Source: a virus
Taxonomy: Duplodnaviria > Heunggongvirae > Uroviricota > Caudoviricetes
Reading direction: 5' to 3' (one strand)
Virus record (IMG/VR): IMGVR_UViG_2695420579_000005
DNA: 11,040 bases
Position 1 is the stretch's first letter. Each line of letters starts with the position of its first letter. A program made the position numbers. Shown here piece by piece: positions 3,001 to 6,000 of this stretch.

Positions 3001-6000
3001 AGTGACTCGGAAGTGCTGTTAGTCGCACTACTGAGCTGTACTATCCCCTTTTTCGTCGTGCTCGCATCCTCAAGCGCCACGGCGGATGCAATATCCTCTG
3101 CCCGTTTTGCCGCTGTCTCAGCGCGCGTTGCTGCAGATTCCGCCGTACTTTTGCTCTGAGCTGCTGCCGTCGCACTACCAGCAGCCTCTGTCGCCTTCGT
3201 GGATGCCGTCGTGGCGCTGCCCTTCGCTGCTGACGCCTGTCTGGTCGCCTCATCTTTTGAAGCAGACGCCGATGATGCCGATGACGCCGCCGAACTGGCG
3301 GACGATGCGGCAGCCGTTTTTGAGGATTCTGCACGGGTTTCCGACGCTTTCGCGTTCGTTTCGGATGTCTTCGCTGCGGAAGCTGACCTCGCTGCTGCCG
3401 TGGCCTGCTCAGTGGCTTCGCCAGCCTTCGTTGTGGCTGTTGAAGCGGATGATGCGGCGCTTTCTGCCGATTTTCCGGCGGCGGTGGCACTGGCTGAGGC
3501 CTGCCCGGCACTTGTTGACGCGGCGCTGGCAGACGACGCAGCCGCTGTTTTTGAGCCTGCCGCAGCTGAGGCACTCTGTCCCGCTGCCGTTTCAGAAGAC
3601 CTGGCGTTCGTCTCGGACGTTTTGGCCGCCTTCGCAGAATTTGCAGCCGCCGTCGCCGAGGAAGCTGCGCTACTGGCGCTTGATGATGCGTTCGTTTCTG
3701 ATGATTTTGCCGCCTCTTTTGAAGCCGACGCATCCCGGGCTGAGGTGGCAGCTTCTGACGCTTTCGTGGTCGCGGTGGATGCAGAAGTGGCTGCTGATTG
3801 TTGTGACGCTGCCGCATTCGTTTCTAACGTTTTCGCCGCACCGGCACTGGTAGCCGCCGCGCTTTTTGAGGACTCTGCAGCGGCAGCACTTTTTGAGGCT
3901 TCAGTGGCCTTTGTTGATGCCGTTCCTGCGCTGGAAGACGCTGACTGAGCCGACGAAGCGGCCTGTCCGGCTGACGTGCTGGCTGCACGTGCTGAATCTG
4001 CAGCATCAGTCGCATGGGTTGCCGCCTCACGGGCTGATGTGCTGGCATCGCTGGCTGATTTCTTCGCGGCTGCCGTGTTCTGTGCCACCGCGGACGCGTT
4101 ACGCGCCACCTCTTCCACCATCAGCTCAAAACGGCGCAGTGCCTCCGGACGGGCATCATCCTCCGTCATGGCACCGAGAAAATCATTCAGCGTACCGGGT
4201 CGGGAATCTTCATACACGGTGATGGTCCCGGCATGTGACGGCGGGAATCCTTCCACCAACAGAATAACGCTGTACTGACCGTACTCAACGTCCATGCTGT
4301 AACGCCCGGCTTCATCCGGATTTTCTGAGGCCAGCGTGTTCACCACCACCGTGGTGCTGTTACGTTTTGCTTTCAGCTGGATTGTGCAGTTCTGTACCGG
4401 TTTTCCTGTGCCGTCTTTCAGTACACCTGAAATCTTTACTGCCATATTCACCCCACAAAAAAGCCCGCCTGAACCGGCGGGCTGTCATAACACTGTGTTA
4501 CCTGGCTAATCAGAATTTATAACCGACACCCACGATGAAACCGTCAGTGCGCCAGAGACGTGTTGCTGTGGCGACCGTCATCACTTCCGGTCAGCACATC
4601 GTGCGTTTTCCCCTTATTGTCAGTTACGCGGATATAATCCCCGGAAAAAGTCGACACACGGCTGTAAGCCACACCCGCCATCGCATACGCGCTGAACCAT
4701 TCATTCACGCGCACAGACGGCCCCGCCATCACGCTGAACCAGCGGTTACGCACGGAATCTTCATGCCAGCGGGTATCGCTGTAACGGGTCAGCTGGCGAT
4801 TCTTGTCTCCTGCATAGCTGAATGACGTCACCAGCCCCAGCGTATCCGTAAACTCATAACGGTATTTCACGTTAATCCCGTTCAGATCATCACTGCCGGG
4901 AACGTTGGTCCGGGCATGAAGATACCCCGCGCTCAGCGTGGACTGATGTTCAGACGCCCATGCAGGCGCACCGGATACGGCCAGGCAAATGGCTGCGGAC
5001 AAAATGGCTGCACAAACTTTACGCATAATTACCTCTCGCTTTTCTGCAATAAAAAAGGCGTCATTCCTGACGCCATTTATTGGGGTTATAAATATTTCAA
5101 CGAATACTGATGCCGGAAGCCGCTTTTTTGGTCACAATCACCGTACAGTCGGTGATATTGCCTGCCCCCTGATTGCCTTTCTGGAAAATCTTAAACTCCA
5201 GAGTGACGCTACCACCACCACTAGGCATATCAATAACTGCACTGTAACTACCGGGAATGGCACCTTTAGTTTCTCTGGATGCGATTAATACGCCGTTTTT
5301 GCGAACTTCAAAACCATAACCCGTGTATCGCGTGCCTCCTGGGTTATTTCCGCTCCCCGGATCGTCATACGCTATACCGTTAAAAATAATGGGCGGAATA
5401 ATAATCTGGCGGTCAAAGTTATGATCATCGCTTATGGTGACTGTAACCGTCCCGTTTGGTGTTTCCGTGTTACCCCACGTACCAGCCTGTTTCGGAAATG
5501 ATTTGGATACAGCTTTAACGAAGTCACCTCTGACCTGAGTCGCCTCCAGCATGCCCTTAATCGTACAGTTTTCATTTACCGTGACATTGTTGAGCGTCCC
5601 GGCGTTCGCATTCACACTGCCACTGATATCCGCATTTTTAGCGGTCAGCTTTCCGTCCGGAGTCAGGGAAAATGCCGATGGATTTCCACCGCTGGTAATG
5701 GTGGGGGCCGTCAGGCGTTTCAGGAACACGTCGTTCATGAATATCTGATCGCCCTGACCAACAAACATCGGTTTTGTGTTGCCATTCGCAGGATTAACCA
5801 TCGCAATCCTGTCCGCCGCCAGCAGCACCTGACTCTGCATGCCGTCAGGGGTGTTCTCAATACCGGCACCAATACCCGCGATATAAAGGCGTCCGTCCTG
5901 CATCTGCTGCAGCTTCACAGCCCACATGCTGTTCAGGTTATTATTTGTATCAACCTGAACCTTCTGTATCTGCTGAATTGCCGCACTCTGGTCTTCCAGT

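Follow-up and report, generated by a model that had tools for sequence, protein, structure and literature searches.

The window, that is, the whole stretch of 11,040 bp that was analysed, is the entire contig CXBV01000137.1 from a short-read draft genome of Shigella sonnei ShIB2008, a lineage IIIc strain of the Holt 2012 collection (PMC5447701). Every open reading frame (ORF) of at least 100 amino acids in it belongs to J, lom, stf or tfa, or is an antisense shadow of one of these. The features listed below are assigned to two prophage loci, X and Y. We use J_X for the J gene of remnant X, J' for the truncated copy in the window and J_Y for the intact gene of locus Y in closed genomes.

781..1362, minus strand: tfa of locus Y, tail fibre assembly protein of 193 aa (Caudo_TAP)
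1362..4451, minus strand: stf of locus Y, intact, 1,027-1,029 aa
4544..5026, minus strand: lom' of locus Y, encoding 160 aa and classed as a pseudogene, since internal loss of 83 bp between CTGGCG direct repeats shifts its frame
5097..6893, minus strand: J', the 3'-terminal 1,797 nt of the prophage Y J gene, comprising 596 codons and the stop
5103..5510, minus strand: PF12421 domain at the tip of J' (ORF residues 460-595), of phage-434 type, E 1.3e-25
6306, 6309 and 6310, minus strand: three-nucleotide patch at which J' has the J_X allele AGCGCC and not the J_Y allele ACAGCA
6893..6894: the join, CCAGAAAGAC followed directly by TTGTTCCGC, where IS21 interior is fused to J codon 570
6894..7131, minus strand: IS21-family left-end fragment of 238 bp, with terminal TGTCAGCGCC at 7131 and the first 48 istA codons
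7117..7443, minus strand: stf', a side tail fibre gene of which the first ~104 codons remain (match to positions 1-104 of the 134 in PF08400 phage_tail_N)
7507..8106, minus strand: lom of locus X, full length, 199 aa (PF06316 Ail_Lom, positions 1-199 of 199)
8174..11040, minus strand: J_X, the J copy belonging to prophage remnant X, its 5' end lost at the contig end

Homology to J starts at position 6893 (TTGTTCCGC), at what is codon 570 in the intact J_Y of 1,165 residues. The ORF of J' (5097..6887, minus strand) runs through 596 codons without a stop, and in-frame stops in the IS-derived sequence directly upstream mean that the frame cannot be extended. The preliminary description had reported a frame of ~1.79 kb that is open but has no start, and on both counts it was right: no frame disruption was found, and the window contains neither a start codon belonging to J' nor an N-terminal FNIII-A_GpJ or Phage-tail_3 domain. 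The C-terminal series of gpJ domains (Ig_J, Ig_J_second, central fibre and receptor-binding domain, RBD) is complete in J'; the 596-residue ORF matches Ig_J (PF24421, 3e-42), Ig_J_second (PF24489, 9e-39), Phage_Tail_Tip (PF09327, 3e-31) and Ig_GpJ_C (PF12421, ~1e-25), and it matches the lambda J structures 8iyk/8xcj with an E-value of 4e-252. The same architecture, with FNIII/Ig domains followed by the central fibre and then the RBD, is found in lambda gpJ (PDB 8IYK, and 8XCJ/8XCK with LamB) and in PDB 9WCA ('A8 gpJ 713'), and residues 1-267 of J' are almost identical to residues 570-836 of lambda J. The position in a tail operon of the order ...K-I-J-lom-stf-tfa also fits, with lom', stf and tfa following J' in the window and M-L-K-I lying upstream of the intact J_Y in closed genomes.

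The gene is found complete in closed S. sonnei genomes, with 1,165 residues and all domains. J' differs from J_Y of the closed chromosomes HE616528, CP104423 and CP064376 at only 3 of 1,791 nt; the comparison includes the lineage IIIc strain 75/02, whose J is likewise intact at 1,165 aa. Relative to its intact homologues J' has acquired no independent substitution, frameshift or stop, each of the three differences being the allele of the paralogue. J' is the 3' half of the J gene (central tail fibre or tip attachment protein) of a second lambdoid prophage of S. sonnei, an ordinary gene that is most likely intact in the organism. Because J' equals the 3' end of an intact gene but for three nucleotides, no decay is expected and the long open frame is uninformative about selection; nor can frame conservation or dN/dS against the closest intact homologue be computed, since the three differences include no independent substitution. 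The weight that had been placed on 1.79 kb free of stops is thus misplaced, chance being enough to explain it.

The wider setting of the two loci is seen in closed chromosome CBDDMI010000001.1, where locus Y (1.267-1.290 Mb) and locus X (1.949-1.969 Mb) have the same orientation and lie ~685 kb apart. In closed genomes locus Y carries a complete tail gene set, V-G-T-H-M-L-K-I-J-lom'-stf-tfa, and the identical 160-aa lom' product is called; locus X is a gutted remnant from which head, tube and tape-measure genes are absent. The roles of the two J copies are reversed there, with the 'full' J_X in the gutted remnant and the 'truncated' J_Y in the complete tail locus. The exact Stf product of the window occurs in thousands of S. 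sonnei assemblies, and a full J lies upstream of it in all closed genomes listed. The stf' of locus X is interrupted by an IS21-family insertion, its ORF extending four codons inside the element, and this stf'::IS21 junction is also present in closed S. sonnei chromosomes.

J' and J_X share 77% identity overall (BLASTP), distributed very unevenly. Over codons 1-440 a codon-level comparison gives 91.4% amino acid identity (dS 0.34, dN 0.05), and over codons 441-596 only 42.5% (dS ~2.1, which is saturated; dN 0.57). At the nucleotide level, identity falls from ~85-97% to ~40-58% near 5550-5640 of the window. The strong divergence of the last ~150 residues described earlier, with a boundary at 5560, is therefore borne out; upstream of it the two copies are indeed homologous, but at ~90% identity 'near-identical' was too strong. 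They form direct repeats of 1.3 kb at ~90%, in which exact common blocks measure 40-94 nt and only four reach 50 nt or more. Recent tandem duplication of a single J-lom-stf module was considered as an origin for the two copies and rejected: dS is 0.34 upstream, the tip is saturated, and lom and lom' differ.

The tips themselves represent two distinct allelic classes of the receptor-binding domain at the C-terminus, as the preliminary description had supposed. Both match PF12421 Ig_GpJ_C, and when aligned with characterised RBDs, a comparison proposed at the outset, both match solved gpJ domains end to end (E 8e-23 to 9e-54). The counter-reading that they are one domain separated by neutral drift holds as regards the domain and fails as regards the drift: synonymous sites are saturated at the tip, so the difference is not drift following a duplication. 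The last 200 residues of J' are 93% identical to phage 434 J (UMO75286.1, OL657226.1), which has the same PF12421 RBD; at the nucleotide level the tip is 94.6% identical to 434, and 94.6-96% to 434, 2851, mEp460_ev081 and several Stx phages, with 74 phage records in total. The order J-terminator-lom-stf-tfa in phage 434 is also that of locus Y; unlike in 434, the J' tip belongs to a chromosomal S. sonnei prophage with a broken lom and an Stf of 1,027 aa (437 aa in 434). The tail-fibre gene of phage 434 redirects lambda to OmpC, specificity being set by the gpJ C-terminus (PMC11101478); by homology, the 434/OmpC-type tip of J' should bind OmpC. The J_X tip (8174..~8640) is of the VT1-Sakai/PPompW type, its nearest solved structure being 9WCA (E 9e-54); over 8174..8680 it is ~92% identical in nucleotide sequence to the VT1-Sakai (Sp15)/PPompW-type J of E. 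coli O157 prophages, and the proteins align without large gaps. The literature searched held nothing usable on the receptor of this type. As both tips diverge from the one with which lambda binds LamB, use of LamB is not to be assumed for either. That two alternative J tip alleles, of 434/OmpC and VT1-Sakai type, reside in separate prophages of one chromosome is already known.

What sets the window apart is the point at which locus X gives way to J'. Over 254 bp the IS fragment shares 98.4% identity with IS21-like elements annotated in E. coli; it aligns to the left ends of ISEc62 and IS21, its terminal inverted repeat starting TGTCAG. It encodes a 52-residue istA' ORF (6872..7030, minus strand) with HTH_23 and HTH_7 matches, whose TGA stop overlaps an in-frame GTG of J' (GTGA, 6872-6875). 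The window lacks a complete IS21 element with istA, istB and both ends; all it contains is a left-end piece of 238 bp. Closed S. sonnei genomes show the element continuing beyond the point where the window leaves it. A fresh insertion of IS21 into J_Y was excluded, as the J-proximal IS sequence is internal (48 istA codons in) and not a terminus. The sequence reads cleanly through the join, without an 'n' and with zero microhomology, and a block of 79 nt that is identical in J_X and J_Y begins 1 nt downstream of it; such a block is a natural contig boundary.

Searches for the join returned this contig and no other. In 5,426 complete E. coli genomes the join is absent, a 501-bp query spanning it being covered by any one record to 74% at most; an exact 34-nt join pattern had no match among GTDB species representatives; and an exact-product look-up of the 596-aa ORF found none. 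Of the two junction products, of 52 and 592 aa, no copy outside this contig is found among 153 billion gene positions, in a collection where the neighbouring Stf product occupies 3,688 index blocks.

Two further lines of evidence concern the assembly. The first is the mixing of alleles between the paralogues. At the three-nucleotide patch in J', ACAGCA is found in 6/6 closed J_Y copies and AGCGCC, the allele in the window, in 7/7 closed or long-contig J_X copies. Conversely, J_X of the window differs from J_X of closed genomes at seven sites (10904, 10864, 10862, 10859, 10856, 10383 and 10367), all of which carry the J_Y allele. All ten differences from the closed genomes, seven in J_X and three in J', are thus the allele of the other paralogue. 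Real gene conversion could in principle account for such mixing, although the apparent J_X/J_Y conversions are best explained as an artefact of the assembly consensus.

The second is the behaviour of sibling drafts in the same accession series. In draft L011, J is duplicated internally across one 'n'; in L013, J_X jumps to J_Y at a 9-nt match, after which lom' passes to J_X across an 'n'. These structures are clearly impossible, artefactual mosaics. Drafts L010, L012 and L013 also have the wrong paralogue allele at the three-nucleotide patch, the reverse of the mix in the window. The sibling accessions CXFP and CXFS are in the S. sonnei assembly list of a pipeline combining Velvet, SSPACE and GapFiller (PMC5320598), greedy tools with which, according to the pipeline's authors, false joins are possible (Page et al. 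2016, PMC5320598); CXBV is absent from the part of the pipeline's accession table that was searched. We infer that CXBV was made in the same manner, by Velvet contigs, SSPACE scaffolding and GapFiller closing. The siblings show single-'n' joins and mosaics in this very gene, but the join in the window has no 'n'.

From these observations, we hypothesize that the apparent truncation of J' and its placement result from a false contig join, a reading to which we assign a probability of about 0.72. J_Y would in the organism be an intact gene of 1,165 codons in its own tail operon, ~685 kb from remnant X. Paralogue blocks of 40-94 nt are beyond what short reads can resolve, and the X and Y loci would on this account have been wrongly joined in the draft, giving rise both to the truncation and to the position of J' behind J_X-lom-stf'::IS21'. 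That the join is artefactual is suggested by its uniqueness, the separation of the loci, the mixing of alleles, the artefacts in sibling drafts and the identity of J' with an intact gene. The existence of the truncation in the organism is doubtful because the join is unique, the paralogue alleles are mixed and the sibling drafts are artefactual. The earlier idea of a truncated, stored host-range allele that is kept open is not supported, as J' is the 3' end of an intact J_Y and the truncating join is seen in one draft contig only.

Two observations on the join count in the opposite direction. Non-homologous joins in the siblings keep an 'n', and the one in the window has neither 'n' nor microhomology. 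Moreover, the window reads 238 nt into IS21, whereas seven sibling contigs stop ~53 nt in (two of them at ~31 nt), and the reads of ShIB2008 may differ there.

We stress that the consequences of the false-join reading are mainly cautionary. In polylysogenic strains of Shigella and E. coli, the lambdoid J genes have identical blocks that exceed short-read length, and drafts can for this reason contain truncated, duplicated or mosaic versions of the tail-tip gene that have no real counterpart. Scans of draft genomes for 'stored host-range cassettes' or gene conversion should be expected to yield false positives, and the main value of the present case is as a warning of this kind.

The chief alternative, unlikely in our estimation, is that the join is real and private to ShIB2008, an illegitimate recombination having fused the IS21 interior within stf' of locus X to codon 570 of J_Y. 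Assemblers usually need an overlap to join contigs, or leave an N behind, and the absence of microhomology at a clean, N-free join suits illegitimate recombination better than an overlap-based merge; the deeper reading into IS21 than in any sibling contig points the same way. S. sonnei has many IS elements and rearranges frequently, making a private structural variant not far-fetched, and IS21-family elements do break J in closed genomes, as with ISEc62 within J of E. coli VTB97379v. The topology is demanding, however. Given the order of Y and X and their shared orientation in CBDDMI010000001.1, the head-to-tail join of X to Y cannot come from a simple deletion and would need a tandem duplication of ~685 kb or a prior rearrangement. 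Such a large duplication, or a deletion in an IS-rearranged chromosome, could have produced a very young J pseudogene fragment; even then, with three nucleotide differences, the open frame would reflect youth and not selection. Against a real join stand also its confinement to a single contig across the 5,426 E. coli genomes, the GTDB representatives and the gene collection, the mixed alleles at 10/10 variant sites of that same contig, the false X/Y joins in sibling drafts and the intact J_Y in closed genomes of the same lineage.

Were the join real, the GTGA overlap could couple J' to the intact expression signals of the IS21 left end, which could then drive translation of a 592-aa, N-terminally truncated J with a 434-type tip, and a crossover would swap tips; we regard this combined proposal as rather improbable. 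A single homologous J_X/J' crossover would delete lom-stf'-IS21' and leave a full-length chimeric J directly upstream of the intact stf-tfa, which, if true, would provide a host-range switch in one step, arising by accident out of a dead prophage remnant.

It is very improbable that the join is real at a third locus, made up of an IS21 fragment and a J remnant, with the contig following a repeat-mediated path from X through it to Y: contigs of the series do switch paralogues at common blocks, and the 79-nt block adjoins the join, but the 52-aa junction ORF is recorded in no other assembly, the closed S. sonnei genomes of the collection included. Equally improbable is the proposal that J' is a maintained, promoterless cassette storing an alternative host-range allele for selected or programmed tip switching; two PF12421 alleles do coexist in the genome, and RecA-type recombination between the direct repeats J_X and J' would yield a full-length J with a 434-type tip followed by intact stf-tfa, but J' is merely the 3' end of a gene intact in closed genomes, the window encodes no recombinase, invertase or reverse transcriptase among its ORFs of at least 100 aa and shows no evident inverted-repeat architecture, and the absence of the arrangement from every other genome searched effectively refutes the proposal. 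Known switching systems differ accordingly: the J copies are direct and not inverted, and no invertase accompanies them among these ORFs, unlike in the Gin/Cin invertible cassettes of Mu and P1, and diversity-generating retroelements would call for the reverse transcriptase that these ORFs lack. Co-resident lambdoid prophages exchange tail-fibre modules. Nothing in the window shows that such an exchange has happened, but the likeness is there: one chromosome carries two J alleles that share long identical blocks, and one of the two alleles lies in a prophage remnant that is defective.

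By exact-product look-up, the window is contig CXBV01000137.1 (assembly GCA_001249635.1) in its full length; a published table (PMC5447701) lists CXBV as Shigella sonnei ShIB2008, a lineage IIIc member of the Holt 2012 collection. The minus strand holds all of its real genes, listed here with a prime marking cut or broken copies:

8174..11040, minus strand: J_X, a J gene cut by the window end
7507..8106, minus strand: lom, 199 aa
7117..7443 (ORF), minus strand: stf', a side tail fibre gene of which only the first ~104 codons are present
6894..7131, minus strand: left-end fragment of an IS21-family element, 238 bp
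5097..6893, minus strand: J', a second J gene represented by its last 596 codons
4544..5026, minus strand: lom', a broken lom, 160 aa
1362..4451, minus strand: stf, full
781..1362, minus strand: tfa

As the preliminary description had stated, J' is open without a stop over 596 codons (5097..6887); stops in IS-derived sequence close the frame just upstream. BLASTP gives 77% identity overall between J' and J_X. By codon-wise comparison, codons 1-440 have 91.4% amino acid identity (dS 0.34, dN 0.05) and codons 441-596 have 42.5% (dS about 2.1, which is saturated; dN 0.57), with nucleotide identity falling near window 5550-5640. The strong divergence previously noted for the tip is thus confirmed, but the part upstream of it, which had been called near-identical, is about 90% identical.

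Compared with characterised J receptor-binding domains, as had been proposed, both C-termini give full-length matches to Pfam PF12421, the gpJ receptor-binding domain (E 1.3e-25 for J' and 2.5e-36 for J_X), and align end to end with solved gpJ tips. They are one domain family in separate allelic classes; of the suggestion that they might be the same domain separated only by neutral drift, the first half stands and the second does not. The J' tip has 93% protein identity to the last 200 residues of phage 434 J, and its DNA is 94.6-96% identical to 74 phage records, among them 434, 2851, mEp460_ev081 and several Stx phages. The allele, the 434 type, is a known one, and in family and architecture the gene is a lambda gpJ. 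The C-terminus of gpJ is the specificity determinant, and the 434 tail-fibre gene redirects lambda to OmpC (PMC11101478). The J_X tip is about 92% identical to the VT1-Sakai and PPompW prophage tips, and we found no receptor assignment for this VT1-Sakai-type tip in the literature searched. No phage relative is nearer to the J_X tip than the J of VT1-Sakai itself (AP000400.1; L025 4001..7473), whose annotation shows two CDS, split 'by a mutation'. Both tips are closer to a solved gpJ C-terminal fragment, PDB 9wca/9wcb ('A8 gpJ 713'), than to that of lambda; the J_X tip matches it at E 9e-54 and the 434-type tip at E 4.5e-31.

The window Stf protein is unchanged in thousands of S. sonnei assemblies. 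All the closed chromosomes shown have, upstream of it, a complete J of 1,165 aa, which we term J_Y. The order at this prophage, locus Y, is V-G-T-H-M-L-K-I-J-lom'(160 aa)-stf-tfa, and 75/02, of the same lineage as ShIB2008, has the complete 1,165-aa J there. Against the intact J_Y of three closed genomes, J' differs at 3 of 1,791 nt (window 6306, 6309 and 6310); it is not a decaying copy, and because the differences are so few its long open frame is expected and is uninformative on selection. The J_X-lom-stf'::IS21 part of the window is also present in closed S. sonnei chromosomes, where the IS21 element runs on beyond the point at which the window switches to J'. This second site, locus X, is a gutted remnant consisting of a Q-like gene, IS elements and then M-L-K-I-J, and no head, tube or tape-measure genes are found at it in closed S. 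sonnei genomes. The closed copies examined (L018/L009, 1..10400) carry a Q-like antiterminator gene and IS3-family elements with M-L-K-I-J directly after; IS21 cuts stf, another IS cuts IS21, and sitABCD-like ABC transporter genes lie just beyond. In S. sonnei, then, alternative J receptor-binding alleles sit in two different prophages, of which one is a dead remnant; among lambdoid polylysogens this is nothing out of the ordinary, and its kind was known before.

The most likely reading, with a probability of roughly 0.72, is that short-read contigs were falsely joined, which would account for both the truncation of J' and its tandem placement; J_Y would then be intact in the organism, in its own prophage; the truncated adjacent J copy, the unusual part of the window, is probably not real. 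The join (...CCAGAAAGAC/TTGTTCCGC..., at 6893/6894) connects a point 48 codons into istA to codon 570 of J_Y. A fresh IS insertion into J was rejected, since the IS side is the interior of istA and not a terminus. There is no microhomology at the join; one nucleotide downstream begins a 79-nt block identical in J_X and J_Y, one of only four such blocks of at least 50 nt, and homologous exchange could take place across blocks of the lengths shared. Neither a set of 5,426 complete E. coli genomes nor the GTDB species representatives yielded the join, and the 52-aa and 592-aa ORFs that span or start at it are on record for this contig only. In the closed chromosome CBDDMI010000001.1, loci Y and X lie in one orientation at 1.27 Mb and 1.96 Mb, about 685 kb apart; from this arrangement a simple deletion cannot make a head-to-tail X-to-Y join, which would require a ~685-kb tandem duplication or an earlier rearrangement.

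Relative to closed genomes, the two J copies have also exchanged bases. Compared with its counterpart in two closed genomes, the window's J_X has seven changed sites (10856..10904, 10367 and 10383), all seven with the J_Y base, and the three differences in J' (6306..6310) all carry the J_X base. Because the paralogues differ at about 14% of positions, ten matches out of ten are not independent mutation; they are either gene conversion or a mixed consensus. A tested patch is consistent in closed genomes of several lineages (six J_Y copies, seven J_X copies), and the sibling short-read drafts L010, L012 and L013 show the opposite allele mix there; the J allele mixes of sibling drafts are different ones. 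Some of their J structures cannot be real: L011 (CXFS01000212.1, 2100..2300) repeats J codons ~530-720 across a single 'n', and L013 (CXCD01000247.1, 22..3469) passes from J_X to J_Y at a 9-nt match, runs through the 434-type tip into lom' and, past an 'n', returns to the J_X tip. In public S. sonnei drafts with an internally duplicated or mosaic J, the lengths of the annotated 'J' products are abnormal. L010 and L011 come from CXFP and CXFS, which are in the S. sonnei assembly list of a Velvet, SSPACE and GapFiller pipeline; its authors caution that such greedy tools may join contigs falsely (PMC5320598); judging by the shared accession series and collection, CXBV presumably came from the same pipeline. 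To any analyst, reciprocal mixing in such drafts would pass for gene conversion, and caution is needed over J paralogues in short-read drafts.

The main rival, a real rearrangement private to this isolate, we consider unlikely. In its favour, the junction has neither an 'n' nor an overlap, the contig enters IS21 by 238 nt where seven sibling contigs stop at about 53 or about 31 nt, and IS21-family elements do break J in closed genomes. In the closed chromosome of E. coli VTB97379v (NZ_CP178682.1; L001 8147..10215), a complete ISEc62 (IS21 family, istA and istB) lies inside J and splits it into N- and C-terminal pseudogene halves, a genuine case of what the window merely appears to show. Even if the rearrangement were real, it would make J' a pseudogene of very recent origin, not a cassette that is being maintained. 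That the join belongs to a third, unsampled locus is very improbable. The earlier proposal that the truncated copy, with its open frame and different tip, is a stored alternative host-range allele we regard, if read as a selected system, as just as improbable, because the arrangement is found in no other place and genes for an invertase, recombinase or reverse transcriptase are absent from the window.

At 6872..6875 the 52-aa istA' remnant ends in a TGA that shares bases with a GTG in the frame of J' (GTGA), and it is exactly at this GTG that the public gene caller started the 592-aa product. Stop/start overlaps of this kind are a classic translational coupling arrangement; the overlap matters only if the join is real.

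The pseudogene lom' has lost 83 bp internally, between two CTGGCG direct repeats, and the resulting frameshift ends its product at 160 aa; this defect is real, as closed S. sonnei genomes have the identical 160-aa product called. The central third of Stf (2830..4280) is a long Ala/Ser/Thr-rich low-complexity stretch of 61-62% GC, in which the other frames and the opposite strand contain several spurious ORFs (100-258 aa); assembling short reads across this repeat could be unreliable, although the Stf product matches closed genomes exactly. Downstream of tfa, window 1..780 is rich in AT (31-38% GC), and its ORFs do not exceed about 50 aa. Closed genomes have an IS1 copy ~800 bp past tfa, which probably explains why the contig ends at window position 1.
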